Positions 11,211 to 64,000 of a DNA stretch of 64,000 nucleotides are shown here, piece by piece (position 1 is the stretch's first letter; each line of letters opens with the position of its first letter). The position numbers were made by a program, and so were the translations under genes. The stretch is from Escherichia phage vB_EcoM_Goslar. The notes under the pieces are model-generated. The model ran no database searches. It worked only from the letters and a program-made list of their open reading frames with translations, and was not told the origin of the DNA. The stretch is taken from sequence record NC_048170.1; one strand, given 5' to 3'.

Positions 11211-12041
11211 TTAATCGTAACTAAAATAAAGTTTGCTGCTGACGCCGCTATCGGAACGAGGTTTTAATACCAGAACAGAGCTTCCGAACGACGGAAGTAT
11301 TGGAACATCTAAATCGTTCGCATCGGCAACTTTTCCATTATAAACGACATTGGCTGTTGTGATGAGTTCCCAAGCTAAGGTATAACTCATTGAAATCAGC
11401 GACGAGGCTAAACGGAATGCGTTGTATCCTTCTGGAGTATCTCCAACCGACATCGAACGTATCGCATCTTGCGGCGGTAAATTTAGCTTGATGCCGTAGG
11501 TGCTGAATGTGTGGAAATCCCCTTGTTTACTATCTTCTGGATAATACGAGGTTAGCGGTTCTCGCACCGTAATCAGTTCGCTAATATCGGTACTTACATC
11601 TTTTCGTGCGAGGAATTGAAACGTACCGTGCCATGATGCCGACGCGTCAGAACGAACGGGAACAGATATGGTTTTCTCGCCGCTTTCAAATTTAACCTGT
11701 GACGCTAACGCTGAAGAATCAAAGATCGTTAAATCGATCTTCAACCCATACTTCTTAAACAGCTGCGTTAAGCAGTCTGCTATCGTCGTCTTATCAGCAA
11801 CGACAATAAAAGGTTGGTGTTTGATAAAGAGCTTATTAATGTCTCGACGTTGAAGATAAACCTGTACGGGGTCTTCGACGTAGTAAACCGATTGTGGTGC
11901 AGGGGCTATAGAAAGGCGTAACCGACCCGATGCACCATACCAGGCTGGCGTTAACGTAATGTCTGACAGGGACAACGGATGCTGGAGATAGGCGTTTATT
12001 TTAGATAACACTTCCTCCTGCCATGATGCTTCAGGATACAT
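11211..12041 (-). CDS. hypothetical protein (276 aa), tail-module associated
   Basis: ORF track; first gene after strong terminator at 12098..12161. Confidence 0.5.
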   Translation of the reverse strand: MYPEASWQEEVLSKINAYLQHPLSLSDITLTPAWYGASGRLRLSIAPAPQSVYYVEDPVQVYLQRRDINKLFIKHQPFIVVADKTTIADCLTQLFKKYGLKIDLTIFDSSALASQVKFESGEKTISVPVRSDASASWHGTFQFLARKDVSTDISELITVREPLTSYYPEDSKQGDFHTFSTYGIKLNLPPQDAIRSMSVGDTPEGYNAFRLASSLISMSYTLAWELITTANVVYNGKVADANDLDVPILPSFGSSVLVLKPRSDSGVSSKLYFSYD

Positions 12042-49133: not shown

Positions 49134-50585
49134 ATGAAACTCAAACAAAGCTGGAAAGACGAACTCCTTGCGCTAGTAAACAGCAAAAACAGCTTACAAC
49201 TGACGTTAGACGATGTAAAATTTGAACTGACGGCACCGGTAAGCGAAGTGCCTGGAACGGTTGTTGTTACGATCAAACCGAACGACGATAGCCGTTACTT
49301 TAACGAGCAATCTCTGACCTACGTTCGTCGAGACATCGCTAAAAACTTCACCGGGATCCCGTTACGGGTTATCGTTAAAAATGATACCGCCGTAAGGGAT
49401 ATCATCAATACGATCGCTGAACGTTACGGATTAGTATTTGACACAACCGTCGACTTCCTCGAATCCGAGCTGAATAAACAAATTACGTTCGCAGACACCG
49501 GTATTAAAGACATTACGGTTCCGGTTGCAAACACGTCTTATGTTTGGGCGGGTAATCTTCAGTTCAATATCGCTAACGATACGTTGAGCTTGATTACGAT
49601 CATCAAGCAAACCAATCTTACGAATCTGGTTTATCTGGATGGTGTTGAAGCTGACACATCGGGTTCGTTACTATTAGCAACAACCTCGGTTATCGGCGAA
49701 AACGGAAATGCCGAAACAACTGAAGGTGTCCTTGACGCCGCGTACTTCCAGAATATCCTGAACGTCATGGTTCGTTATGGTGATATTAACAGCGAACAAA
49801 TGCAACAAGCAATGCAGACAATTAACCAAAGCGAAGACGCTCGTAGAGTAGAAGTGCGGTCATACGGTGACGCCGAGTTACTGGTAACCACCAAGAAAGA
49901 TTGGGTTATCGGTAGCCTTAAGGGTGCTATGGTTGTTGGTCACGCTTCACCTAAACCGATCCAATACGTTCTTAAAACAAAAGGCGGCACCATTATATTG
50001 TCATTAGATGGTTGGACAAATGTCAATATCGATTGGGGTGATGGGAATAAGACGACGCAGGACTCAGGCGATAATGAATATCAGCACAATTATGCTGACA
50101 CTACAGAACGTACAATCGTCGCTACGGGTACCCCTACCAACACTGAAGATACAGACGTACAGCAAAGCTTCACCGGTGGTAACATCACTGAAATCGTTGA
50201 CTGGAACAACGGATTACCTAAGGCCCCATCATTCCTTGCGGCGAACAGTTTAATTAAGGTTCCCGATTATATCCCGGCATATTGGACGTCGTTAGAAAGT
50301 ATGTTTACGCGATGCAGCGCTATTAACGACGTGAGCATCACCAAATGGAACACCCGCAACGTTACTTCAATGAAGGACCTCTTCTACGGTTGCGCTACGT
50401 TCAACCAACCGATCGGTTCGTGGGATGTTTCGTCTGTTAAGAATGCAGACAATATGTTGTCTGGGTGCTTCGCGTTCAATCAGGATCTGAGTGGTTGGAC
50501 ATTCCCGGCAGGCACTTCACACATCAACTACGACGGCATGACCGCCGCATGGCAGCCTGATCACAAACCACGCTTCACCGAGTAA
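49134..50585 (+). CDS. receptor-binding-like protein: shared N-terminal module plus C-terminal DUF285-like repeats
   Basis: N-terminus MKLKQSWKDELLALVNSKNS...RRDIAKNFTGIPLRVIVKND...YGLVFDTTVDF aligns with 6868..7413 and 1..1081; C-terminus WNTRNVTSMKDLFYGCATFNQPIGSWDVSSVKNADNMLSGCFAFNQDLSGW. Confidence 0.6.
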   Translation: MKLKQSWKDELLALVNSKNSLQLTLDDVKFELTAPVSEVPGTVVVTIKPNDDSRYFNEQSLTYVRRDIAKNFTGIPLRVIVKNDTAVRDIINTIAERYGLVFDTTVDFLESELNKQITFADTGIKDITVPVANTSYVWAGNLQFNIANDTLSLITIIKQTNLTNLVYLDGVEADTSGSLLLATTSVIGENGNAETTEGVLDAAYFQNILNVMVRYGDINSEQMQQAMQTINQSEDARRVEVRSYGDAELLVTTKKDWVIGSLKGAMVVGHASPKPIQYVLKTKGGTIILSLDGWTNVNIDWGDGNKTTQDSGDNEYQHNYADTTERTIVATGTPTNTEDTDVQQSFTGGNITEIVDWNNGLPKAPSFLAANSLIKVPDYIPAYWTSLESMFTRCSAINDVSITKWNTRNVTSMKDLFYGCATFNQPIGSWDVSSVKNADNMLSGCFAFNQDLSGWTFPAGTSHINYDGMTAAWQPDHKPRFTE

Positions 50586-50606
50586 AAAAAAAAATAGTTA
50601 GCATAT

Positions 50607-50645
50607 CTTCCTCCCTACCCATAACGGGCGGGGAGGAAGGTTTAT
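50607..50645 (+). terminator. terminator between convergent genes (near-perfect 14-bp stem, loop ataac, then GUUUAU)
   Basis: cttcctccctaccc-ataac-gggcggggaggaag then gtttat; follows stop of 49134..50585. Confidence 0.6.
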
Positions 50646-50656
50646 GACGATTTAAT

Positions 50657-51953: not shown

Positions 51954-53528
51954 TTACAATTCAAAATCTTCATCGATAACACGCTGGGTAAGCACCTTGT
52001 CGCTGAAGAACTCCACCTTGCGCTGATGGTATTTACGGTGCGCTTCGATAGATGTACATACCAGATACCAGAACGTTGGTGTCATTCCTTCGAACTTCCC
52101 TTTCAGCTGACGTAGGCGTCCCAATACCTGAATGTTACCGGTTCGTGACCCCATCGCTAACGTCATGAACGTCATCACCAAGTCAGGGAGGTCGATACCT
52201 GTACCTGCCGATTTCACCGTCGTAACGCTGATATCGTTATCCAACAAGACCATGAAATCTTCTTCAGCAGTATAAGGACCAATCTCTAACTCAGGAATAC
52301 GTTCACTGAGATAATGCGATAACGACTTACACATATCAACGGTTGCACAATACACCAGCATCTTCATGCCTTCCTGATACTGGTTCATGAAACCTTTGAT
52401 GATAACGGTATAGATAAAGTTGAAATAGGCGAGTTTGAGTTGCTTGTTCTTCATGATAGACTGTTCGAATATCGTGTGAGAATAAGAACCCCCAAAGCCT
52501 TTGTATCTGACTTTATCTGTACTGCGTAATCGATACGTTACCGCATTTACCGCAATGTATTTCTTGTATTCGCATTTCGCATAACGTGCTTCTTTCGGAT
52601 ACATCAAATACAACATCCGTTCGATGAACGGATCGTCGGACACTGCCGTTGCTGACAGATAGATGATTTCCGGAATATTCGCGTAACACTTCACTTTGAA
52701 CAAGAAATGCAATGCTTCGTGACATTCATCATGGATTAACAACCCAATGCCTGTTTTCTCCCAGAACTCGACAGGATGGAAAACATAAGGTGCGACACAG
52801 TTGTTCTTTTCATAATCGGTTATGTATCTCTGAAACATGTTCAGCGAGAATAACGCAATTTTGAAATCCAGCTCACCTTGTTCCACCAACGTCTGGAATT
52901 CCAGCATGCTGTAACGAGGAATGTCTGGATGTGGTGGGTCAGATTGAGCTGTGCCACGTATCTCGATAACATCGCCCGGTTCCATACCGAAGAAACTTAG
53001 CAGTGAGCTACGCCAACCAGGCATGTATCTCGGTGACAGGATAATACCCGTCCGTACACCGCGTCGGAAGGTGATCTCCTGCGACATGGCTGTTTTACCA
53101 GACCCCGTGCCTGCGGTGTTTAAGCTCATTCTGAAGGGGGTATCCTTACCCCCGTCCATGTACTCCAACCATTCTTGTTGATCTTCACGCCACGGAAACT
53201 TCCATTTCTTTACGAACTCCACTTCCTTACCTGGCACTGGATCGTGATAAACGATTTCCAACCACTCTTTTCGGATTCCTCGAGAGAAGATAAAATCCAA
53301 AAACGATTTCAACTGTTCGCGGAGTAAGTATACCTCGCTATAATCGCTTCTCGCTGCGGCATACGTGTTTATGGTATCGGTAACCATTCTCCGTGTACGA
53401 GGGTCACGCCGTTTCCTCAGATGCAAACAACGGTCTCGAAGGTAATGGCCGATAAGATGGGCAAATCGAAGTCCGTATCCGCTCAGCCTCATGCCATGCG
53501 AGAAGACGTCGATACGAGCTAACTTCAT
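51954..53528 (-). CDS. superfamily II DExH-box helicase
   Basis: Motif I GTGSGKT, motif II LIHDECHE, motif III LSATAV, motif V AGTGIDLPD, motif VI QVLGRLRQ. Confidence 0.65.
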   Translation of the reverse strand: MKLARIDVFSHGMRLSGYGLRFAHLIGHYLRDRCLHLRKRRDPRTRRMVTDTINTYAAARSDYSEVYLLREQLKSFLDFIFSRGIRKEWLEIVYHDPVPGKEVEFVKKWKFPWREDQQEWLEYMDGGKDTPFRMSLNTAGTGSGKTAMSQEITFRRGVRTGIILSPRYMPGWRSSLLSFFGMEPGDVIEIRGTAQSDPPHPDIPRYSMLEFQTLVEQGELDFKIALFSLNMFQRYITDYEKNNCVAPYVFHPVEFWEKTGIGLLIHDECHEALHFLFKVKCYANIPEIIYLSATAVSDDPFIERMLYLMYPKEARYAKCEYKKYIAVNAVTYRLRSTDKVRYKGFGGSYSHTIFEQSIMKNKQLKLAYFNFIYTVIIKGFMNQYQEGMKMLVYCATVDMCKSLSHYLSERIPELEIGPYTAEEDFMVLLDNDISVTTVKSAGTGIDLPDLVMTFMTLAMGSRTGNIQVLGRLRQLKGKFEGMTPTFWYLVCTSIEAHRKYHQRKVEFFSDKVLTQRVIDEDFEL

Positions 53529-55531
53529 AACGTGATTACATCCTCCGGTTTAGGTTCTTTACGCGGTAAAAGCATGTAGTCGATCGGATGATCCGGCTTC
53601 ATGGTTGGGATATAACTGTTCGGGTTTTGGAACGCATCCAGTTGCTCTTGGTGAGCGAACTTCATACTCAAGGAGCGCATGTTCATGTTCTTCTTGAAGG
53701 TACTGAAGTATCGTGTTGTTCCCTGTTTCGGCATGCGATAATCTTTCGTGTGTGGTGAACGAATCATGCTGGCGTAGAGAATAACATCGAGATGCGAAAG
53801 GTTCATTCGCAGACGCTGGGCACACAGACGATGCCAATAGTACAGCACGTTTGCAACTTCTTCCGGTGTCGCTTCGTCTTCCGAAAGGAATCCGGCACTG
53901 AAAGAACCTTTCCCGAATTTGAATTCACGTTCGATTTCTTTTGCGTATTCCATCATGTTTTTGTGGATTAACGGCATCTGGAATAACGTACGTGAATTGT
54001 CCCAATGTTTCAAGTCGAAAATCACAATCCCGTCAGACGTCACTTCCCAGCTATGGCGTTTAAGATAACGGATAAACGCTTTACTCGGGACAACGGGACG
54101 TCCACAGAAATCGAAATTGACTTTGAGCTTACGGTAGCTTTCATCTTTCCTGTCGTAAATCTCCATATCACAAAGCGTCATGTTAAACAGGCGTTGCGGT
54201 ATCAGCGAACTGATTTCTTCCGCTTCCGCTACATCGTACAACATGTTCGCAAGACCTAACTTCATCTTAATCAGCACGTGTTTACCTTTCAGCTCACGTG
54301 CGAGTTTGATGTCGTTCATATTCTGGCTGTAGCGAAGGATATGTTGATATTCCGGTGGGATTGGTGCTGTGGATACCGTTGACGAACCATCATGGTGTTT
54401 GGTAGAAAGAATGTTCTGCGTTACCTGTTGCGAACAGGTACGCGCTGCGCCATCGCCGACATTATCGGTTAGTGCGAAGTTATGACTTAATTCACCGTAA
54501 CACGTCGTACATACCCCAGCAGGATCGGGATGATGACAATAGTTAACGGAGCGCATACGCACTGTGGTGCCGATCAATTCTTTCATGTGTGGTTGTATCG
54601 CTACCAACGAACCGTCATCGCGAATAATGAATCGACCGTGGAAGCCACGCAGGTCGGTCTCATCACGGATTGGCATCGGGATGGTCTCTTTACTACCACA
54701 ATCTCCAGGATGGAGTCGTTGTACAACCGCTGTCGCTATCTGAAGTTCACGACCGAAATATTCAGACTTCTTGATCTGCTCTTTGTTGAACAGCAACGAC
54801 TTCGCCGCAGAACGACTTTCTTTCAAGCTGTCGGGAAGAGAGATCAAACCTGCCGCGTACGACCGCATTACTGGATCACGGAATATCTCGGAGTTAATAT
54901 CGGTCAAGAATCCACGCATCCCAATACACTGCAGCACCTGCCCAATCGAAACGTGTTCGGTTCGTACCGCACGCGCAATAGGGTTTGCGTGTAACGTTTT
55001 ATCGGTGCTCAGTACCTTGGTCAGTTTCTTGTATGCGCTTTCGATACCTTCACGGGTGGGTTCCGCTTCGGCGATGATTTTCTTAACTTCAGGATGTACG
55101 GTAATCTGATAAAAATCATCCGCGCAAATAGTCGTTACGTATTCCTCCAGCGCATACGTAAAGAAGTTATATACATTGTTAAACATATCGAACAATGCTT
55201 TCCAGAGAACCTCACGATTCTCTTGTGGATAAGCATACATGCATTGACGATACGCGGCGCTTTGCAACGCAACCGACGAACCAGCAGTAAACTTGCGTTT
55301 ATCGACCAGGTTCTCTTTTGTCAATGGTGTCTCAGGATACATGCGATGCACAGACCAGTGCATGTAACTAAAGAAAATGCGTCGCGCACGCAATTCATGA
55401 ACGCCATCGTCCATCTCGATATATACACGGTCATTAGGCTGTGCCCACTCGAATACTTCATCAACCGGCCAGTGCATAAGCTCGCGTGCCCTCACACGAC
55501 GTTTCGTGGTGGTCGTCTGTGTTATAGTCAT
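53525..55531 (-). CDS. multisubunit RNA polymerase beta-prime-like protein (C-terminal half homolog)
   Basis: VRMRSVNYCHHPDPAGVCTTCYGEL...AARTCSQQVTQNILSTKHHDG parallels E. coli beta-prime [22 protein letters not shown]...[22 protein letters not shown]; upstream IGQVLQCIGMRGFL parallels LNVLQYFISTHGAR; no NADFDGD motif, consistent with a split subunit. Confidence 0.55.
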   Translation of the reverse strand: MTITQTTTTKRRVRARELMHWPVDEVFEWAQPNDRVYIEMDDGVHELRARRIFFSYMHWSVHRMYPETPLTKENLVDKRKFTAGSSVALQSAAYRQCMYAYPQENREVLWKALFDMFNNVYNFFTYALEEYVTTICADDFYQITVHPEVKKIIAEAEPTREGIESAYKKLTKVLSTDKTLHANPIARAVRTEHVSIGQVLQCIGMRGFLTDINSEIFRDPVMRSYAAGLISLPDSLKESRSAAKSLLFNKEQIKKSEYFGRELQIATAVVQRLHPGDCGSKETIPMPIRDETDLRGFHGRFIIRDDGSLVAIQPHMKELIGTTVRMRSVNYCHHPDPAGVCTTCYGELSHNFALTDNVGDGAARTCSQQVTQNILSTKHHDGSSTVSTAPIPPEYQHILRYSQNMNDIKLARELKGKHVLIKMKLGLANMLYDVAEAEEISSLIPQRLFNMTLCDMEIYDRKDESYRKLKVNFDFCGRPVVPSKAFIRYLKRHSWEVTSDGIVIFDLKHWDNSRTLFQMPLIHKNMMEYAKEIEREFKFGKGSFSAGFLSEDEATPEEVANVLYYWHRLCAQRLRMNLSHLDVILYASMIRSPHTKDYRMPKQGTTRYFSTFKKNMNMRSLSMKFAHQEQLDAFQNPNSYIPTMKPDHPIDYMLLPRKEPKPEDVITL

Positions 55532-55676
55532 TATTGCTTTCCGATTTAAATGGTTTTATCATACGGTTTACCAAATCCGTTGGACTTTACTATCGTTGTG
55601 ATAGCATTGGGAATCCCTTCCCTTAGGTTATGTAGGTGTTAATATATCTCCACTGCTGACCTTTATGTCGGCAGCA

Positions 55677-56162
55677 TTATCCAGCTTTCTGTTGTAAAGC
55701 GTATGGATCCATAGCGTCTGACATATCCGCAAAAACGGTGAGAATAAACCCCTTTATCTGTCTCACCTCGGTTACACGAAGCCCTTTATCATTGCGATAT
55801 ACGTTTTCTTCACCGACTAACTTTGGTCGAATAACATAAACTCCATCAACAAGCGGGAATGTCGGATACGGATAAATACCAATACGAATGATGTTTGGGC
55901 GATCGCCTAGAAGGTCACGTCCAAACTTATCGACTCGACCATAAATCGCCCCATCCGCACCTTCCACCTCAATGAGATCGTTTCGAATATCCTGAAATAG
56001 CTGCTCTAACGTGTCGGCGGGATACGCATATGCGACGCCTAACGCTGGATCCTCAATGGTTTTGACACTGAATCCGTTAAGCCAAACAATCCGTTCATCC
56101 GCCCATGTTTCTTCATATACCGTTAATCCATCGCCGTATATGTTGGCGTGTGCTATCTCCAT
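55677..56162 (-). CDS. hypothetical protein (161 aa)
   Basis: ORF track. Confidence 0.45.
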   Translation of the reverse strand: MEIAHANIYGDGLTVYEETWADERIVWLNGFSVKTIEDPALGVAYAYPADTLEQLFQDIRNDLIEVEGADGAIYGRVDKFGRDLLGDRPNIIRIGIYPYPTFPLVDGVYVIRPKLVGEENVYRNDKGLRVTEVRQIKGFILTVFADMSDAMDPYALQQKAG

Positions 56163-56276
56163 AATCTCATTTCCTCTTATACGTTAGGATAGATGACATG
56201 TTTGATATACGTTGCCTTTGCATATATTGCTTTATTTCCGTCAGAAATAACGGAAAATAAAAACAACGACATAGTT

Positions 56277-56306
56277 CCCTCCCACCTCCACATGGGAGAG
56301 GGAGGG
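56277..56306 (-). terminator. hairpin CCCTCCC-acctccacatgggaga-GGGAGGG, U-rich 3' flank on minus strand
   Basis: Inverted repeat; loop shares cacatggg with hairpin at 57135..57163. Confidence 0.45.
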
Positions 56307-56319
56307 CTATTCGTGTTTA

Positions 56320-56682
56320 TTACTCTATGCTGTCTTCTTCAGCACAATCCTCTTCTGAACCATCGAACGTTTTCTGCACTGCAGTGGTATCCCAGTTGGC
56401 AGCGTAATCAGCCATCGCTTCGCGCAGTGCTTCCTCACCAGCATCACCGGCCAGGTCAAGTACAACCAAACCTTGCGCGACGTTTTGAGCGACAGTATCA
56501 ATAACGGTCGCATCTTCTTCAAAACTACGTACCGGTTCAATGGTGCCTACATCAACAGCATAGTTCGTGGTCGCTGTAAGCACGGCGACTTGTAGCGCAT
56601 CACTATCTTCATCGTGCAATGCTGCTTCAATACCGATTGGACGGGCCAGTTCTTGTAGTGTTAATTTGCGAATTAAGTTCAT
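56320..56682 (-). CDS. highly acidic protein (120 aa)
   Basis: Asp/Glu-rich throughout, ends ...DGSEEDCAEEDSIE. Confidence 0.4.
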   Translation of the reverse strand: MNLIRKLTLQELARPIGIEAALHDEDSDALQVAVLTATTNYAVDVGTIEPVRSFEEDATVIDTVAQNVAQGLVVLDLAGDAGEEALREAMADYAANWDTTAVQKTFDGSEEDCAEEDSIE

Positions 56683-56704
56683 TATGTTTTTCCTCAGGTG
56701 AATG

Positions 56705-57055
56705 TTAGCAATCGTTTAAAACTTTTTCGATACGATGGTTGACGAATTCATTGAACGACTCTTCGGCTTGTTCGATAATTTCATCAACATCGATATCTAA
56801 TTGTTGGGGTTGGATGACATGCTCTTTCATGGTTTCTAGCCAGTATTCGGCTTTAACCATAACGTTAGCGACTTGTTCGACCTGACTGCGTATGTCGACG
56901 ATCTGGCAATCAGGATTGTTAATATCGATGATGTGTCCGTGGTGTTTGATAAACCCTAACTTATTCGACGCCCTTACCGCATCGCGGGCAAGCTCTTGCA
57001 AGATTAAATTATTTACATAGTTCACTGCTATGGAACGACTTTCTTTATCACTCAT
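56705..57055 (-). CDS. hypothetical protein (116 aa)
   Basis: ORF track. Confidence 0.4.
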   Translation of the reverse strand: MSDKESRSIAVNYVNNLILQELARDAVRASNKLGFIKHHGHIIDINNPDCQIVDIRSQVEQVANVMVKAEYWLETMKEHVIQPQQLDIDVDEIIEQAEESFNEFVNHRIEKVLNDC

Positions 57056-57134
57056 ACCAGGGATCCTCTTTTAAGTGTTCACATTCTAGTGTTAAGCAGT
57101 TAAAATAAACCGTCCCTTTAATCAGCATAAACAT

Positions 57135-57163
57135 CCTCCTCCCACCACATGGGCAGGAGGAGG
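57135..57163 (-). terminator. hairpin CCTCCTCC-caccacatgggca-GGAGGAGG downstream of 57175..57585
   Basis: Inverted repeat; related to hairpin at 56277..56306. Confidence 0.45.
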
Positions 57164-57174
57164 CGTAATATGCA

Positions 57175-57585
57175 TCAGAAAGGAGGACGATCTTTAAATT
57201 CTAACAACGTGTCTTCGAAGCAAGCGATGAGTTCAGACTGTAATTCGGTACGGCCTTGTTCACCGAAGAGTTCCAGCAACATTAACCCCCGAGCGGTCTT
57301 CGTAGCAACCTCTTCGCAGATGCGGAGATCGTGAACTTCATCATCGTTGACATCTTTACGCAACTGTGCCGCAATGGGCTTAAGATTGCCGTTTTCATCG
57401 TGTTCGTCACGAAATGCATCATAAGCCGCATCGATGTTCGCGATCCGTGTCAATCCTTCAGAATCCCGCCAATCTCGATATAATCCAAGAAGACGATTAT
57501 GATTCTTCGTTTTGACGTTCGGTGCTGGAAGGTTGCGCAACAGATGTGGCGTAATCATTGCTATCACGCTATCCGAATGATTCAT
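57175..57585 (-). CDS. hypothetical protein (136 aa)
   Basis: ORF track. Confidence 0.4.
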   Translation of the reverse strand: MNHSDSVIAMITPHLLRNLPAPNVKTKNHNRLLGLYRDWRDSEGLTRIANIDAAYDAFRDEHDENGNLKPIAAQLRKDVNDDEVHDLRICEEVATKTARGLMLLELFGEQGRTELQSELIACFEDTLLEFKDRPPF

Positions 57586-57596
57586 CGTATACCTCG

Positions 57597-59765
57597 TTAG
57601 CTTTCGCAGTCATCTGCGTCGATGATTTGTCCGCCAGCAACGTTCAGCTGATGATACAGAATCCTCAACGCACGGTTGCCACCAATGGGATACTTCTCGA
57701 AGTTGGTTGCAATAGGAATCGCTGACGGCTTATCGGTCGCATAGATACTTTCAGTGATGCTATCCACCTGTTTTGGATTGTTCGCATAATCCATAAAGAC
57801 GCTTGCGAACCATCCGCCAGCAAAGGCGGTAACTTCGCGATGTTCAGATTCGCCACAGTAACGAGTTGGTTGCTCTTTACCCGGAGAACTGTATTTATCG
57901 CTATTACTGAGTTTCGACGGTAATCCATGCGCTTGCAATTTAGGAATACCCACAGCCGACCAATCGTTCGCCGTCTTCTCCAACATCATGATGTACGTGT
58001 CACCGATCGCAATATCGTTCTTGGTTGTCCGCCACTGCCCAGAACGCCCACGGTATCGTACAGGACCTTTCTTCAACGGGAACTCACGAATCAGATTCTC
58101 CATACGTTCTGAACCTGCTGCGATACTGTCCGTCGGGATATAAACTTCCGTACCGTGGCGTTGTACATACCGTAAATGATCCCATTTATCCTCATCCGTG
58201 ATACAGTATTTTTCAACAACCTGTTCCACGAATTCAGGACTGACGATATAGTAGTAACGCATTAGTGTGTTCCAAGCGGTCTCCAGATCGCCTGCATCCA
58301 TCACTGGTTTCAGTTCACGCATGATCTGATCGCCAACACCGTTGATGTAAGGTGCATTAACACGACTTAAACTCATCCTTTTGATTACCGTGCTATCGTC
58401 AAACATAAAGTCTGCAACGTTACCCCATTGGTCAACCGGCATCTCATCATCTTCCATGATGTCGGTTACGACGAATTTATCACCCGCCATACCAGTGAAT
58501 TTAAACCCGATACCTGGAACAACGTCGTACGTGTACGTGATGGTCACACGCCAATCATCGAGATTCTCTTTGCGGTAATCGCGGGTCGGTAACACATGAC
58601 GTAGCTGTCCATTAGGATTGCGGATATCAATACCATGTTCAGCATCAGCCAGGTTCAACCACCACATCACCGTTTGATGATGACGTATCGGCGTACCAAC
58701 GCGTTCACGTTCATACTTACGAACAGCATCCTGAATTCGGGTGTAAAGCAAACCGATTGCGTTCTCGTATTTCAGGAATTGACGATACGGAGGACGCATC
58801 TTCTCTTCCATCATAATCGCACGCTCGCGGGCTTGACGTCCAGAACGACGATGCCGGTCGCTGACAACATCGATATCCGTTACACGCGCATTCGGTTCAG
58901 CGTAAGTGAGGTCATCGTAAACATAATCCACACGCTGAAGATTACACGTCATCATGTCAACAACGCTGAGGATAGGATCTATTTCGCGTGTTGCTGCAAG
59001 TAACCCATCTTTACGAATACGCTCACCGTTCTCGGGTATTGCTTGATATACCTCATCATCGCCGTAGAGATTGATTGGGTATCGCGATTTACCTGATGTG
59101 ATTGTTCGCTTCTCAATGCCGGTACTGGTGAAATGTTTCAATACACCACGACGGGCAACACCACCATCCTCGATACACTGATAGAAGCTACCGAAACACA
59201 CTTTACAATCGCGACCGTAACCCCACTCGCGTGTTTCTTGATTGATCGCTGGGCTTTCCATCAAACGAGAATATCGCGGTACGATCTGGCCTCGACGGAG
59301 GGAATGGAACAAGTTGGTTGGTCGAAAACGGAAACCGTACTGCTGATGCATGATGTGATGCTCAGGCACTTCAAGCAAGCGTAGTTCGTGGCGGTTACCA
59401 TCCTCTTGGTTTTCATACAGCACGTAATGCATCGTGTTTGTTTTGATGCTGTTTGCTGTATGCCCCGGTTGGAAACGTGGGATGATATCTATGATGCGAG
59501 ATTCGACTGGAAACTCTACTGACCAAGTGTTCTGTCCGTACTGGTATTCAATCCCCGTCGTTAGTCGGGACGGTTTCGCATCTTTGATAACCAACGCTTG
59601 GCTAAGATGTCCACCAAACATCGCAGCGCGCTGTGCTGAGTTATAATGCAATAGCCCGTTAAGTCCAGTCCCTACGCCAGTATACTCCTGTTTAATGGGA
59701 ATGATTTTACCTTCAGCGATTGCCTGCTTCACAGATTCATAAAGAGGTTTTTCTTTATAATGCAT
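57597..59765 (-). CDS. multisubunit RNA polymerase beta-like protein (C-terminal half homolog)
   Basis: FKFTGMAGDKFVVTDIMEDDEMPVDQWGNVADFMFDDSTVIKRMSLSRV parallels E. coli beta [47 protein letters not shown]; also YIMMLEK versus YMYMLKL and a C-terminal segment parallel to GQRFGEMEVWALEAYGA; start placed at ATG 59765 preceded by AGGAAG (ORF track 57597..59930). Confidence 0.6.
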   Translation of the reverse strand: MHYKEKPLYESVKQAIAEGKIIPIKQEYTGVGTGLNGLLHYNSAQRAAMFGGHLSQALVIKDAKPSRLTTGIEYQYGQNTWSVEFPVESRIIDIIPRFQPGHTANSIKTNTMHYVLYENQEDGNRHELRLLEVPEHHIMHQQYGFRFRPTNLFHSLRRGQIVPRYSRLMESPAINQETREWGYGRDCKVCFGSFYQCIEDGGVARRGVLKHFTSTGIEKRTITSGKSRYPINLYGDDEVYQAIPENGERIRKDGLLAATREIDPILSVVDMMTCNLQRVDYVYDDLTYAEPNARVTDIDVVSDRHRRSGRQARERAIMMEEKMRPPYRQFLKYENAIGLLYTRIQDAVRKYERERVGTPIRHHQTVMWWLNLADAEHGIDIRNPNGQLRHVLPTRDYRKENLDDWRVTITYTYDVVPGIGFKFTGMAGDKFVVTDIMEDDEMPVDQWGNVADFMFDDSTVIKRMSLSRVNAPYINGVGDQIMRELKPVMDAGDLETAWNTLMRYYYIVSPEFVEQVVEKYCITDEDKWDHLRYVQRHGTEVYIPTDSIAAGSERMENLIREFPLKKGPVRYRGRSGQWRTTKNDIAIGDTYIMMLEKTANDWSAVGIPKLQAHGLPSKLSNSDKYSSPGKEQPTRYCGESEHREVTAFAGGWFASVFMDYANNPKQVDSITESIYATDKPSAIPIATNFEKYPIGGNRALRILYHQLNVAGGQIIDADDCES

Positions 59766-59796
59766 AGGACTTCCTATTATCGAATTGAGGTACGTC

Positions 59797-60150
59797 ATGT
59801 CTAACACGCCCCTGAACGACTTTCTTAAGACAAACCCCGATGACCTCATCCACGATCTTGATTTCAGGAACGTTGTTGAGATGCATCTGGAATATTTCAA
59901 AAATGCCGGACTGGTCTCTACGATAGACATACCACCCGAACGCGCCTACGAATTCGATGGTAACTTTTATGGATTGTGTCGTGTTCTGCTCGGCGAGGGT
60001 AGCGAACCAATGCACTGGATCACCCTGAGACTCAATGGTTATCGCGACCCTACGGAATACACCGCCGATGTTCTAACCATGAAGATTGTCGATACAAGCG
60101 CAATCAACACATTAAAACAACAGTACCGCACAATCCACTACAGCGCTTAA
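59797..60150 (+). CDS. hypothetical protein (117 aa), lone plus-strand gene
   Basis: ORF track 59785..60150; ATG 59797 preceded by GAGG; followed by hairpin. Confidence 0.4.
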   Translation: MSNTPLNDFLKTNPDDLIHDLDFRNVVEMHLEYFKNAGLVSTIDIPPERAYEFDGNFYGLCRVLLGEGSEPMHWITLRLNGYRDPTEYTADVLTMKIVDTSAINTLKQQYRTIHYSA

Positions 60151-60155
60151 GATAA

Positions 60156-60190
60156 CCCTCCCGCAACGTAAGGCGTAGGGAGGGCATTTA
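60156..60190 (+). terminator. hairpin CCCTCCC-15 nt loop-GGGAGGG then cattt, between convergent genes
   Basis: Inverted repeat read directly. Confidence 0.45.
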
Positions 60191-60215
60191 TGCCGTCGTT
60201 CGATGACTTAATACA

Positions 60216-61496
60216 TCAGAAACGATTTACAGTACGTCCTGTCCACGCGCTCAGGATGTTGTTACGTTCCATCTCAGCACGACGACGTAAACCGTTTGGC
60301 GACTGCGGTGCTGGCGGCATCCCCCATCCGGCAGGTTGCATGCCCATGCCCGGCCAAGCAGCATTATTGAACATCGTACCGTTACGTTCCGCAACACGGT
60401 TCATCAACGCATCAAACGTGCTATTACCTGCCGGTTGGTTACCACCACTTTCCCACTGATTAGGTTGGACAGGTGCGGTTTTACCTAACAGGTTATCGAT
60501 CACACTGCCTGTTGCAGCAGGACGCGGTTGCATACCTTCATGTGCGGCTGCCGATGGATTTGGCTTAACCGTCGGCTGTGGACGACTGTTCAGCGTTACA
60601 CCCATGTTGTATTTCGCTGGCGGAATCTGACCACGATGCTGATTAATCGGTTCAAAATCCTCGACCCAGGTAACATCGCAATAACCGTTCTCTTTACCGT
60701 CGTACTTATCACCAAACAGTTTGATGAGATTGTTCAGCGGTTCCATCAGCTTAGCGAAGCTGTGGATAAGACAGTCGAAATACGGAGCATGGGGATCGCT
60801 TGACCCAGCGTTGTACGTTTCGCTTACTTCACCCGCGTGCGGGATAACATACTCAACCAGGTTTCTCAGCATGTTAAGATCTTTCTTGGAAATCTCAACA
60901 CCACACCAATACGTTTTCTTATCTTTCGTGCTGATGTGTTCTTCTTCCATGAACGGGAAAGTAACGACCGCAACGCGGGTCATCTTCTTACCCATGTAGG
61001 TTGCACCAGTACGACGAAGATAAATTTTGGACAGCGTATACGGCGTATCACGTTTCAGCCAAACGGTGACCAGTTTGCCCAGGGTCGTTAGTGTTTTATC
61101 GCTGGCGTCCGCAAGGATGTTGAAGAACTCTTTTTGCTTCGGCCCGAAACGTTTTGCTTCTTTAGGATTGATTGCGGTTTCAACCATCCAAATCAGCATG
61201 GAGCATAGCGTGGCATTAAAACGAACAACCATCGCACGACGCAGGAACTGAAGGACTTCCGATTCGCCGTTCATCACGTCTTCACTTAGCGGATGGAACA
61301 ACACGCGTTCAGCTAACTGATTTCCGGTACGAACTTCAGAAACCGGCATCAACAACGGCATGCTTTCCACGGTAGCGGCAACTGCAACAACTTTACCATC
61401 CCCATCCGTAAAACGATATTCTAATTCGTGGGCGTCATTCTCAAAATAGTTAACGCTCTGTAGTGCTTTGCGATAAGCTTCGATAAGCTTCGACAT
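60216..61496 (-). CDS. hypothetical protein (426 aa) with Pro/Gly/Gln-rich C-terminal region
   Basis: ORF track. Confidence 0.5.
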   Translation of the reverse strand: MSKLIEAYRKALQSVNYFENDAHELEYRFTDGDGKVVAVAATVESMPLLMPVSEVRTGNQLAERVLFHPLSEDVMNGESEVLQFLRRAMVVRFNATLCSMLIWMVETAINPKEAKRFGPKQKEFFNILADASDKTLTTLGKLVTVWLKRDTPYTLSKIYLRRTGATYMGKKMTRVAVVTFPFMEEEHISTKDKKTYWCGVEISKKDLNMLRNLVEYVIPHAGEVSETYNAGSSDPHAPYFDCLIHSFAKLMEPLNNLIKLFGDKYDGKENGYCDVTWVEDFEPINQHRGQIPPAKYNMGVTLNSRPQPTVKPNPSAAAHEGMQPRPAATGSVIDNLLGKTAPVQPNQWESGGNQPAGNSTFDALMNRVAERNGTMFNNAAWPGMGMQPAGWGMPPAPQSPNGLRRRAEMERNNILSAWTGRTVNRF

Positions 61497-61551: not shown

Positions 61552-63138
61552 TTAGAAGTTGCCTTTGGTAGTTACCGCATCCACCAGGTTAAACAAATCA
61601 ACACTCAGCTTATACACCTCCTGCTGGCTACGGTTGAGCAGCGGGCTGTATGCGGATGGGTTGATGTTCGGCATGGTGTACGGAATAGGTGCAGAGCCGT
61701 CAACGCTGATCTTGAACTGGCTGTCCAGGAACAGGTTAATCGCGCCGCTCACCATAACCGCATTCGGGTTGTTACCCAACATGGAGGGTAGGATATTGGT
61801 AATCATGTCAGAACGCATTTGTTCAGCAGCACGGTTACAATCGTATCCTTTAATGAACGGTACAGCGTCGGTAACCGCAACCGCCCACTGACCAGGCATG
61901 ATACCGAGTTCTGGGTGACCATGGTTGTCAGCAATGAAACGGAACGACTCCAACATGCGATACGTCATCGCAGCAGGCATCATCGCAGCAAGCGATGAGC
62001 AATACAGCGTTGGATAATCGATCACGTCCCAGCTCTGGCTGTCGGTCGGCATCCAACCAAACTCGGTGGTTGCTGATGTACCACGACGAGCTTCCACATA
62101 CGGGAATAACGTTAAGACGTCACGGATATGTTCACCGAACATCCGTTTCATGTCAGCCCAACTCAGGCTGCCGCTGAAAGCGAATCCTTCATCACGCATA
62201 ATCGCACCGAATACCGGATGTGCAACCAGCGGTTCTTCACGAACAGCTTGAGCGGCTTCTACGTAAATATCCTCGTTCTCTGCGCTACCTGGATGAGACC
62301 CGCTTTCGTACGTCTGACGAATAGCCCCAACATTATCGAAGGCTTTTCTCAGATAGATGGTTGGGATGTTCGTATCGGCACTAGCTGGTTTGATTTTCTC
62401 TGTTGCGAAACACATTGCTGCTTCCACACCACGGAAAACCGGTTCCGGTTGCGGTGGGTAGGATGTACGATGAACCACGTCAGCGTAGGCGGGATCGAAC
62501 TGCTGCATTACGTTCTGCATGGCTGGGTCCATGAACTGGTTATCAAAACCACCATTGCCCACCCAACGTGCTGTCGATGCATAAGTCAGCGTATCCTGAA
62601 CACGAGTACTGAACTGAACATCGCGATTAACAGGGTCGTACGCACCGGTCAAAAGGTTCGTTGCGTCCATCGGGGTCGCGCGAACGATTTGCTTACCGAA
62701 CATGTCCGTTGTGGTTGTTTCGGTTACCTGGATTACGTTCGTGAAGAAGAACACCAGTTCATTCGGCAGATCGATAGCACGCGTTGTAAACGCATCGAGG
62801 CTTACAGAATGGTCGGTGTATCCAGAAATGTAATGGACACGCTTGGTTCCTGGTGCAAGGGCCAAGGATTCTTCTACAGCCATCATGAAATGGAAACGAC
62901 GTGTGCCCCAACCATTCGCAATCTCCGAAACCCCCTCAGGTTCTGCAGACTGCTGCAACAAACCGGTTGCAAGCTTATTGATTGCTGATGGTGTTGTTGC
63001 CGTACCGAACCGCGTCGTGTTAATAAAGTCTTCGATGCTACGCATGCTATCTGCGTGGAATCGTAGTGGACGACGTTGTACGTTGTTGTACGGTGCGGTT
63101 TCAACCATCAGTATTTCACGAACATTCATCGGGATCAT
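61552..63138 (-). CDS. hypothetical protein (528 aa)
   Basis: ORF track; long uninterrupted ORF. Confidence 0.5.
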   Translation of the reverse strand: MIPMNVREILMVETAPYNNVQRRPLRFHADSMRSIEDFINTTRFGTATTPSAINKLATGLLQQSAEPEGVSEIANGWGTRRFHFMMAVEESLALAPGTKRVHYISGYTDHSVSLDAFTTRAIDLPNELVFFFTNVIQVTETTTTDMFGKQIVRATPMDATNLLTGAYDPVNRDVQFSTRVQDTLTYASTARWVGNGGFDNQFMDPAMQNVMQQFDPAYADVVHRTSYPPQPEPVFRGVEAAMCFATEKIKPASADTNIPTIYLRKAFDNVGAIRQTYESGSHPGSAENEDIYVEAAQAVREEPLVAHPVFGAIMRDEGFAFSGSLSWADMKRMFGEHIRDVLTLFPYVEARRGTSATTEFGWMPTDSQSWDVIDYPTLYCSSLAAMMPAAMTYRMLESFRFIADNHGHPELGIMPGQWAVAVTDAVPFIKGYDCNRAAEQMRSDMITNILPSMLGNNPNAVMVSGAINLFLDSQFKISVDGSAPIPYTMPNINPSAYSPLLNRSQQEVYKLSVDLFNLVDAVTTKGNF

Positions 63139-63139
63139 T

Positions 63140-64000
63140 TTATTTTTTTCCTCTTAAATTTACTACGTGTTCATTTAATCGAACAACTAATTGCACAAGC
63201 TGCTGACGGATATCTGCTGGACAAAGCATCAATCCTTTACGGTCAGCTGGGACTTTCTCAAGGATTTCCGGGCCTGCTGCTGAAACATCCCAGTCCCATT
63301 CACAAAACGCATCGGCCACCATGTTAATACCGACAACCGGTAAAGTTGTACGTTCATCTTCATACATGGCGTGTGGATACAATTTATTGACAGTAATGAT
63401 CTCCTGTGGTTTTAATTGGTGGATAATCTGATAAACATCGTCGCGTTTAACCTGGATACCTACGGTCAGCGCTGCCAGTTGAGGAAAACCCCAATGGTCT
63501 AATAAGCAAGCTGCAATCGCTAACGCTTTTGCTTGATGCACGGCTTCAATCGGTGCCAGACTTCTCGCCGGAAGATGGCTATCAAGCAACCATTGTGCCA
63601 GTGCTCGGCATCCGCGGTTGATTGGTTTTAACTCAACGGTGTCATCATGTTTAGCGTACGTGTATCCGTCGTAACGTTTTGCGATACGCGCATACATGTC
63701 TTCAACTTTACCGTAAGGTGCTGTTTCGTCGACGTCGTGTAACACACGTTCCATCTGGGTAAGATACGCGATGTCAAGAATGAGTACACGCGGTGAACGT
63801 TTATCTTTCACCATCAACGCATCAATCACGCCTTGACTGTCTTCATCTTGCGCGTTCCCTCGTGGGGTTTTCTCACGAATCGGTCCGCTGAAACGTCGTT
63901 CCGTACAAAGGTTATTCACGTAGCTAAAGATCAGTGTTACCAGATGCGTACAACTCACCAACACCCCATCTTTAACGACAGGCTGTACGGCTTGGTCCAA
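63140..64000 (-). CDS. hypothetical protein, partial (5' end beyond window)
   Basis: ORF runs to window edge; first codon in window is TTG, so true start lies outside. Confidence 0.45.
   Translation of the reverse strand: MDQAVQPVVKDGVLVSCTHLVTLIFSYVNNLCTERRFSGPIREKTPRGNAQDEDSQGVIDALMVKDKRSPRVLILDIAYLTQMERVLHDVDETAPYGKVEDMYARIAKRYDGYTYAKHDDTVELKPINRGCRALAQWLLDSHLPARSLAPIEAVHQAKALAIAACLLDHWGFPQLAALTVGIQVKRDDVYQIIHQLKPQEIITVNKLYPHAMYEDERTTLPVVGINMVADAFCEWDWDVSAAGPEILEKVPADRKGLMLCPADIRQQLVQLVVRLNEHVVNLRGKK

Follow-up and report, generated by a model that had tools for sequence, protein, structure and literature searches.

Do two large reading frames on the minus strand of this phage DNA encode halves of a split multisubunit RNA polymerase and, if so, of the virion-packaged enzyme (vRNAP) or of the non-virion enzyme (nvRNAP)? 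Goslar belongs to the Chimalliviridae and is a jumbo phage that forms a nucleus. We analysed the whole stretch of 64,000 nucleotides (the window), in which the original prediction had read the C-terminal halves of beta' (ORF A) and beta (ORF B) of a phiKZ-like polymerase. Our results indicate that ORF A and ORF B are almost certainly the beta' C-half (gp165) and the beta C-half (gp171) of the nvRNAP of Goslar or a near-identical strain, and nothing that we found contradicts this assignment. The features of the locus are listed in Table 1, where both frames keep the coordinates and the strand first given for them.

Table 1. Features of the polymerase locus, in order of position in the window
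Feature	Coordinates	Strand	Details
SF2 helicase, phiKZ gp75 homologue	51954..53528	(-)	Goslar gp164; tblastn E 1e-49; phrog_16
ORF A, nvRNAP beta' C-half	53525..55531	(-)	668 aa; Goslar gp165; phiKZ gp74 / RAY gp249 homologue
Small acidic ORF	55677..56162	(-)	161 aa
Small acidic ORF	56320..56682	(-)	120 aa
Small acidic ORF	56705..57055	(-)	116 aa
Small acidic ORF	57175..57585	(-)	136 aa
ORF B, nvRNAP beta C-half	57597..59765	(-)	722 aa; Goslar gp171; phiKZ gp71-73 / RAY gp248 homologue
Conserved 117-aa gene	59797..60150	(+)	Goslar gp172, core gene cg14; phrog_3455 E 5.3e-21
phiKZ gp70 homologue	60216..61496	(-)	Goslar gp173 (= Goslar_00173); tblastn E 3e-19; phrog_3520 E 1.5e-63
phiKZ gp69 homologue	61552..63138	(-)	Goslar gp174; tblastn E 8e-10; phrog_3141
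Sigma-like fifth nvRNAP subunit, C-terminal 286 aa	63140..64000	(-)	Goslar gp175; phiKZ gp68 homologue; phrog_3209

Exact-protein look-up returned identical sequences for both frames, Goslar_00165 for ORF A and A0A482GEI1_BPGOS for ORF B, and likewise Goslar_00173 for the gp70 homologue. In profile searches against PHROG, ORF A matched phrog_3015 with an E value of 4.7e-170, covering positions 3-652 of the 653 in the profile, and ORF B matched phrog_3295 with an E value of 2e-180; both values lie far beyond chance. A phmmer search of the PDB aligned residues 11-654 of ORF A with residues 4-671 of phiKZ gp74 (7ogp_D, E 1.3e-86), and residues 88-767 of the 777-aa form of ORF B with residues 17-692 of 7ogp_C (E 1e-85). 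These full-length PHROG and 7OGP matches bear out the reading of the pair as C-halves of a split, phiKZ-type enzyme. The same correspondences of Goslar gp165 and gp171 to phiKZ gp74 and gp71/73 are given in Table S3 of PMC10299810.

We then aligned ORF A with the phiKZ gp74 residues named in PMC8287921. The alignment places the bridge helix at residues 232-269 (LPDSLKESRSAAKSLLFNKEQIKKSEYFGRELQIATAV; nt 54725-54838) and the first trigger helix at residues 356-374 (nt 54410-54466), so that both of the beta' elements predicted for this frame could be mapped onto phiKZ gp74. The putative zinc cysteines are C278, C332, C341 and C344 (nt 54500-54700), which align with C288, C341, C350 and C353 of phiKZ gp74. 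The cysteine cluster foreseen for ORF A is thus present, but it lies in the middle of the frame and is 'C-terminal' solely in relation to a full-length beta'.

For ORF B, the predicted beta motif region reads FK(422)FTGMAGDK(430)FVVTDIMEDDEMPVD. K422 (nt 58500-58502) and K430 (nt 58476-58478) align with K386 and K394 of phiKZ, the conserved pair of lysines in the double-psi beta-barrel of beta; here the pair is set in FK..GDKF. Both lysines are in place, but the GxKG of beta reads GDKF, not the GNKGV that had been proposed. We also considered that ORF B might lack the second barrel lysine, and rejected this, as the equivalents of K386 and K394 are both there. The position that does vary is the equivalent of E. 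coli beta K1073, which is Asp in ORF B and G, N, E or K in other members of the family. As originally claimed, NADFDGD is absent from both frames.

ORF B can be read from two start codons, the longest form (777 aa) starting at 59930 and the shorter one (722 aa) at 59765. We prefer the start at 59765, as in the original prediction, because an AGGA lies upstream of its ATG, gene callers and UniProt use the 722-aa form, and homologues align just from about residue 33 of that form. Moreover, the extension to 777 aa overlaps a conserved gene on the opposite strand.

Comparison with known polymerases showed that the closest solved relatives, phiKZ gp74 and gp71-73 (cryo-EM; PDB 7OGP/7OGR; PMC8287921, PMC4666361), are homologous over their full length at about 29-31% identity. 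They share with the Goslar proteins the bridge helix, the Cys4 zinc site, the trigger helix, the beta-barrel lysines, the neighbours gp68 through gp75 and a split partner carrying DFDGD. The two phages differ in host (E. coli for Goslar, Pseudomonas for phiKZ) and in the beta C-half gene, which in phiKZ is split by a group I intron that bears the gp72 endonuclease, whereas the Goslar gene is uninterrupted. Identity was about 30-34% over about 88-98% of the length for gp248 and gp249 of Erwinia phage RAY (nvRNAP beta subunit 2 and beta' subunit 2) and for the proteins of Eowyn, Xoo-sp14, Proteus phage 10, SA002 and Psa21. The nvRNAP of Bacillus phage AR9 (PDB 7S00, chains C and D) has the same split beta/beta' architecture, and phmmer aligned it partially, in the core only (E 3.4e-17 for ORF B, 1.3e-13 for ORF A). 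AR9 differs further in that it does not form a nucleus, its genome contains uracil, and promoters are recognised by another kind of subunit (see PMC9209446).

Similarity to the bacterial enzyme was far lower. E. coli beta 1063-1241 aligned to ORF B with an E value of 6.5e-3, and E. coli beta' 733-947 to ORF A with 0.03, other bacterial beta' sequences reaching 1.2e-4. In the Pfam RNA_pol families, which had been proposed as a check, ORF A had no match among the Rpb1 families and ORF B scored 16.3 bits against Rpb2_6, where the cut-off is 23.4. This check therefore missed its threshold, which reflects low sensitivity and is not counter-evidence; with Pfam below cut-off, the tie to cellular beta and beta' is a distant one, made by way of phiKZ and AR9, whose enzymes are solved. 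Seen through the phiKZ structure, bacterial RNA polymerase and the Goslar proteins have a common catalytic architecture. In contrast to the bacterial enzyme, each large subunit is divided between two polypeptides, alpha and omega are lacking, and a sigma-like protein is a permanent subunit.

The surroundings of the two genes were compared with the whole phiKZ genome by tblastn, and the order gp68-gp69-gp70-(cg14)-gp71/73-gp74-gp75 was found to be kept in the window. Homologues of gp55, gp59, gp65, gp66 and gp67 extend this order upstream in two Goslar-like contigs (L013 and L014). The gp175 gene leaves the window at its right end and encodes 528 aa in full; its fragment matched phiKZ gp68 with an E value of 6.4e-12 (phmmer), and the full-length copy in L013 is 24% identical to gp68 over 560 aa (E 2.4e-31). 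The correspondence of gp175 to phiKZ gp68 is likewise tabled in PMC10299810. phiKZ gp69 is PicA/Imp1, the protein importer of the phage nucleus, and no polymerase subunit. At the other end, the gp164 helicase gene and the beta' C-half gene overlap at the stop codon of the latter.

The conserved gp172 gene stands head-to-head with the beta C-half gene, with 31 bp between the start codons. Annotation puts this small opposite-strand gene in the same upstream position in Eowyn, RAY (gp246), Xoo-sp14, Proteus phage 10, SA002 and Psa21. We also observed an unannotated homologue of gp172 in phiKZ, on the minus strand at 62781-63044.

The sole departure from the phiKZ cluster order is a 2-kb insert (55677..57585, minus strand) of four small ORFs with pI values of 4.0-5.1 and GC-rich hairpins in between. 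The beta C-half and beta' C-half genes are 30 bp apart in phiKZ, whereas in Goslar these four unmatched ORFs separate them. The polymerase genes are adjacent or overlapping, with no insert, in phiKZ, Eowyn, RAY, Xoo-sp14, Proteus phage 10, SA002 and Psa21, and among the phages examined the insert was seen in the Goslar lineage only. None of the four ORFs had a significant PHROG or Pfam match. Paralogy among them was considered and found unsupported, as they show no significant similarity to one another. They could be lineage-specific accessory or competition factors. Rfam gave no match over the whole window, and a survey of intergenic k-mers for a shared promoter motif returned just T-runs, CCCTCCC/GGGAGGG hairpin arms and a weak enrichment of TATGC(T).

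The original prediction placed the N-terminal partners elsewhere in the genome. For beta' this agrees with the Goslar-like contigs, where the right end of the window is followed, after about 9 kb, by a homologue of phiKZ gp55, which is the DFDGD-bearing beta' N-half; L014 and L021-L028 have the DFDGD-bearing gene. For beta, the published table (PMC10299810) names Goslar gp039 as the N-half.

In a survey of 10 Goslar-like genomes, three sites of interruption were seen in the beta' N-half gene, all just outside the window and all falling in the 24 nt that code for NA/DF/DGDA/M (slashes mark the sites); the pieces left as micro-exons measure 12 or 18 nt. One family of intervening sequences, about 350 nt long and a candidate group I intron, sits at two of the three sites and has no Rfam match, and HNH/NUMOD endonuclease genes occur in some alleles. 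One subtype has C in place of U at position -1. After removal at all three sites, the product would read ...YNADFDGDAMNNH... Rfam returned no match for the intervening sequence of L014 or the B element of L013, and it detected intron A of L013 and the phiKZ control. In some strains the P-loop of the neighbouring helicase contains an intein (753-aa allele), whereas gp164 of the window is free of it.

Chimalliviruses possess two paralogous split polymerases, and database names ('RNA polymerase beta subunit') are the same for both, so ORF A and ORF B might instead belong to the vRNAP that is carried inside the virion, injected with the DNA and used to transcribe early genes. The phmmer scores separate the two sets: ORF A gave 294.8 bits against nvRNAP gp74 and 5.2 bits against its virion paralogue gp80, while ORF B gave 140.5 and 123.0 bits against gp71/gp73 (263 in total) and no meaningful match to virion gp178. 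Judged by sequence, both proteins thus match the non-virion paralogue set of phiKZ. Both genes also lie within the gp68-gp75 nvRNAP block, tblastn and phmmer --max found no virion-polymerase subunits or N-halves inside the window, and mass spectrometry of Goslar virions names gp78, gp196, gp205, gp207 and gp210 as the virion polymerase, with gp165 and gp171 not among them. We therefore give a virion origin hardly any chance and regard it as effectively refuted. Sigma-70-like promoters were not enriched in the region (11 observed, 16.9 expected).

Two further explanations of these nvRNAP-like genes were weighed. They could be decayed split pseudogenes that have lost catalytic competence, as the sub-threshold Pfam scores, GDKF in place of GxKG, the Asp at the K1073 equivalent and the unusual insert between the two genes might suggest. 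However, both frames are intact and can be aligned over their whole length with subunits of an enzyme that is active and solved, retaining all residues named by PMC8287921; the same proteins occur, mostly at full length, on contigs of about 235-250 kb from many independent samples; and both families are core genes of all chimallin-encoding phages (PMC10299810). Decay is accordingly most improbable. Identical proteins are also filed under isolate assemblies of Salmonella enterica, E. coli, Shigella flexneri and Enterobacter hormaechei, as they would be if the window were bacterial DNA, chromosomal or plasmid-borne (say, a prophage-like element of Salmonella or E. coli), and its genes host-associated and not those of a lytic jumbo phage. 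In those assemblies, however, the genes sit on stand-alone contigs of about 235-250 kb, a length that matches the phage genome, and megablast of 53000-60500 against 5,426 complete E. coli genomes gave no match; the window itself encodes virion, tail and tail fibre proteins, keeps chimallivirus core genes in the order of phiKZ, and has neither tRNA nor host genes. A bacterial origin is thus scarcely credible. Megablast of the same segment against a phage collection, from which Goslar is apparently absent, also gave no match. The nvRNAP of a Goslar-type phage remains our reading.

By homology with the solved phiKZ enzyme, we propose that gp171, gp165, gp188 (beta' N-half), gp039 (beta N-half) and gp175 would assemble into a five-subunit enzyme with no alpha or omega subunit. 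The double-psi beta-barrel is the fold conserved at the active centre of polymerases, and the bridge helix, trigger loop and Cys4 zinc site drive the nucleotide-addition cycle. In the proposed enzyme, gp188 would bring the Mg-binding DFDGD loop and gp165 the bridge helix, trigger loop and Cys4 zinc site, while gp171 would bring the beta-side barrel with its two conserved lysines and provide the contact surface for the fifth subunit. The injected virion polymerase would express the nvRNAP genes early, and the assembled nvRNAP, inside the phage nucleus, would then transcribe middle and late genes with no need of host RNA polymerase. Assembly, expression timing, promoter specificity and localisation to the phage nucleus are all proposed here from work on phiKZ, RAY and Goslar: in phiKZ, assembly and rifampicin-resistant middle and late transcription have been described (PMC4666361, PMC8287921), and RAY gp248 and gp249 localise to the phage nucleus. 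The function of the Goslar nvRNAP is carried over from homologues of just 29-33% identity, and our literature search found no biochemical study of the Goslar enzyme itself.

The polymerase genes themselves are not novel: gp165 and gp171 are already named RNA polymerase subunits in RefSeq and UniProt and tabled in PMC10299810, and their assignment adds nothing new for this window. The right answer was recovered from a reading of the raw sequence, and the case carries a lesson, in that a check by Pfam only would wrongly refute it, whereas a search of PHROGs or solved structures confirms it at once. Split phage polymerases are an active topic, with work on their structures, on import into the phage nucleus and on intron-borne endonucleases as weapons. 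We suggest, tentatively and as a possibility less probable than not, that the nvRNAP cluster of the Goslar lineage serves selfish elements as a landing zone of unusual density and polymorphism, which might affect how phages compete. Split multisubunit polymerases are what allows nucleus-forming jumbo phages to transcribe without the host enzyme.

gp165 (ORF A) and gp171 (ORF B) of Goslar are the C-terminal halves of the β′ and β subunits of its non-virion RNA polymerase (nvRNAP). This result is already known, both genes being catalogued as Goslar RNA polymerase subunits: exact-sequence look-up returned Goslar_00165, [quoted passage not shown], for gp165 and UniProt A0A482GEI1_BPGOS, "DNA-directed RNA polymerase", for gp171, while the 426-aa neighbour was Goslar_00173. 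A PHROG profile search matched gp165 to phrog_3015 (E 4.7e-170) and gp171 to phrog_3295 (E 2e-180), covering nearly the whole of each profile; both are annotated RNA polymerase beta subunit. The Pfam RNA_pol check that had been proposed returned no family at cut-off: the Pfam scan gave no match for gp165, and the sole match for gp171, RNA_pol_Rpb2_6, scored 16.3 bits, under the cut-off of 23.4. At the level of sequence, the phage-specific profiles are decisive for the homology of both ORFs. Against PDB 7OGP, gp165 matched chain D (phiKZ gp74; E 1.3e-86, residues 11-654 to 4-671) and gp171 chain C (phiKZ gp71-73; E 1e-85). The AR9 non-virion polymerase (7S00) was more distant (E 1.3e-13 and 3.4e-17, respectively), and bacterial β′ (E. 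coli residues 733-947) and β (E. coli 1063-1241) matched weakly, in the regions named in the original prediction. The PHROG and 7OGP matches bear out its claim of β′ and β homologs; its observation on the two ORFs is confirmed, and its interpretation as a split polymerase is supported.

Functional residues were placed by pairwise sequence mapping onto the phiKZ subunits of known structure, in which gp74 has its bridge helix at L242-Y279, zinc ligands C288/C341/C350/C353 and trigger helix at T365-V383, and gp71-73 has β-barrel lysines K386 and K394 (PMC8287921). All mapped elements were kept, and the bridge helix, trigger element and Cys cluster expected in gp165 were each located there from their gp74 counterparts. 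The local motif of gp171 was FKFTGMAGDKFVVTDIMEDDEMPVD, and its letters are therefore GDKF, not GNKGV as first read. The equivalent of E. coli K1073 is Asp in gp171, which represents family-level variation because the alignment showed G, N, E or K there among seven relatives. Neither protein has NADFDGD, as had been noted. For gp171, the start used originally, at 59765 (722 aa), is a better choice than 59930, because AGGA lies directly upstream of its ATG, the 722-aa length is also that given by UniProt and by independent gene callers, alignment with homologues begins only near residue 33 of this shorter form, and the 777-aa reading overlaps a conserved opposite-strand gene. The gene is uninterrupted in the window, whereas an intron carrying the gp72 endonuclease interrupts the phiKZ copy.

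Chimalliviruses carry two paralogous split RNA polymerases. We compared both proteins head-to-head with all phiKZ subunits by phmmer. gp165 scored 294.8 bits to non-virion gp74 versus 5.2 bits to virion gp80, and gp171 scored 140.5 bits to gp71 and 123.0 bits to gp73, with nothing meaningful to virion gp178. Gene order agreed with these scores: when all ORFs of the window were searched by tblastn against the complete phiKZ genome, gp68, gp69, gp70, gp71+73, gp74 and gp75 were recovered as an ordered run. Three of the five nvRNAP components are thus encoded in the window: those matching gp71+73 and gp74, and the C-terminal portion of the sigma-like fifth subunit (partial gp68). The window contained no N-half and no virion polymerase subunit; the Goslar virion polymerase is another gene set (gp78, gp196, gp205, gp207 and gp210). 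phiKZ gp69 (PicA/Imp1) imports proteins into the phage nucleus and is essential; its homologue, flanked in the window by the fifth-subunit gene and the homologue of gp70, is further evidence for a nucleus-forming phage source.

Coordinates of features in the window and in related loci (L numbers) of Goslar-like genomes
Feature	Position	Strand	Details
gp165 (ORF A)	53525..55531	minus	668 aa
gp171 (ORF B), longest reading	57597..59930	minus	777 aa at most
Bridge helix	nt 54725-54838		gp165 aa 232-269; pairwise mapping
Zinc cysteines	nt 54500-54700		gp165 C278, C332, C341, C344; pairwise mapping
Trigger helix	nt 54410-54466		gp165 aa 356-374; pairwise mapping
β-barrel lysines	nt 58500-58502, 58476-58478		gp171 K422, K430 (722-aa numbering); pairwise mapping
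gp68 homologue, partial	63140..64000		C-terminal part of sigma-like fifth nvRNAP subunit; tblastn vs phiKZ
gp69 homologue (PicA/Imp1)	61552..63138	minus	tblastn vs phiKZ
gp70 homologue	60216..61496		tblastn vs phiKZ
gp75 helicase homologue	51954..53528	minus	tblastn vs phiKZ
Four small acidic ORFs	55677..57585	minus	136, 116, 120, 161 aa; pI 4.0-5.1; between the two polymerase genes
Conserved 117-aa gene	59797..60150	plus	phrog_3455, Goslar gp172, core gene cg14; head-to-head with β C-half gene
Intergenic hairpin regions, examples	50586-50656, 56163-56319, 57056-57174 (hairpin 57135-57163), 60155-60185
β′ N-half, site 1 only	L014
β′ N-half, sites 1+3	L021, L022, L024		18-nt DFDGDA micro-exon
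β′ N-half, sites 2+3	L013, L023, L026, L027, L028		12-nt DGDA micro-exon
β′ N-half, site 2 only	L025
Site-3 subtype "b" of ~350-nt element	L021:926-1297, L022:925-1296

Contigs with the window's genes run about 9 kb beyond its right end, where we found homologues of phiKZ gp67 (ChmC, Goslar gp176), gp66, gp65 and gp59, a full-length gp68 homologue, and a gp55 homologue, the β′ N-half (E 1.3e-46). The downstream exon of the latter starts DFDGDAMNNH, and the prediction that N-half partners lie elsewhere therefore holds for β′. The β N-half, gp039, comes from a published table, which also equates gp171 with phiKZ gp071/gp073 and RAY gp248, gp165 with phiKZ gp074 and RAY gp249, and gp175 with phiKZ gp068 (Table S3, Prichard et al. 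2023).

The most interesting by-product is the three-site interruption of this β′ N-half gene, outside the window. In 10 Goslar-like genomes (L013:490-1300, L014:909-1300 and L021-L028:1-1300; ~9 kb past the right end), the gene was broken at three sites within the codons YNA/DF/DGDA/MNNH. The site-2 element scored 46.8 bits (E 1.5e-10) against the Rfam group I intron model, whose cut-off is 50 bits, and in L027 and L028 an HNH/NUMOD ORF ends directly upstream of the DGDA micro-exon. Rfam had no match for the ~350-nt element, which occupies sites 1 and 3. Its structure is clear from 83 predicted pairs, of which 28 show compensatory changes. The element ends in G, two of its three subtypes pair U·G at the 5′ junction, and some stretches, judged by eye, we take to resemble the P and Q elements of the group I core. 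U·G at this junction is near-universal in group I introns. Subtype "b" follows a GCC codon and therefore has C before the junction (a C-G pair). Its boundary may be placed differently, or its splicing may be impaired.

The gp75-like helicase was 524 aa in the window versus 753 aa in other strains (L001:12004-14265, L003, L006, L014, L027 and L025:19760-21587 were compared). The difference is a clean in-frame 229-aa insertion inside the Walker A motif (GSGK/T), suggesting a putative intein, which the window copy lacks. The 753-aa allele had no Pfam match; the L025 helicase was called as 829 aa, and homing-endonuclease domains (LAGLIDADG and Hom_end) lie in its readable 609 aa.

PHROG and Pfam gave nothing significant for any of the four small ORFs between the polymerase genes, and the four are not similar to one another. 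Every Goslar-like contig seen carried this insert, in which the second ORF varied between strains from 115 to 140 aa, whereas the two polymerase genes are adjacent in all seven relatives examined (phiKZ, Eowyn, RAY, Xoo-sp14, Proteus phage 10, SA002 and Psa21). For cg14, the core-genome table gives the phiKZ entry as "n/a" (Prichard et al. 2023); tblastn revealed a homologue in phiKZ, unannotated and lying between gp70 and gp70.1 (NC_004629 62781-63044, minus strand; 33.7% identity to Goslar gp172 across 98 aa, E 1.5e-9). Intergenic regions of the window repeatedly contain GC-rich hairpins with arms of the CCCTCCC/GGGAGGG type; all five copies of CCCTCCC are intergenic, and several hairpins have TATGC(T) or TATG no more than a few bases downstream. 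These units may be terminator-plus-promoter modules; late promoters of phiKZ have the consensus TATG. Two DUF7941 proteins are encoded, at 11211..12041 (minus) and 49134..50585 (plus); the latter, among the few plus-strand genes, also has a DUF285 domain. A DUF7941 "filament cloud" was described in the Goslar virion structure preprint.

Numerous metagenomes and isolate assemblies contain the window's proteins on ~235-250 kb contigs; across the collection, the indexed proteins turned up in between 104 and 639 blocks. Stand-alone Goslar-like contigs occurred in many isolate assemblies of Salmonella enterica, E. coli (including O157), Shigella flexneri and Enterobacter hormaechei, which suggests that cultures carry the phage or that its enterobacterial host range is broad. 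A phage BLAST collection, evidently without Goslar, gave no DNA match and proteins of at most 34% identity.

By homology, gp171 and gp165 would form a five-subunit enzyme together with gp039, gp188 (the β′ N-half) and gp175, with no alpha or omega subunits. Phage-nucleus localisation has been shown for the RAY homologues, and that of the Goslar enzyme would be similar. The injected virion polymerase would transcribe the nvRNAP gene block early, and the assembled nvRNAP would then act on middle and late genes inside the phage nucleus (PMC8287921; PMC12908238).
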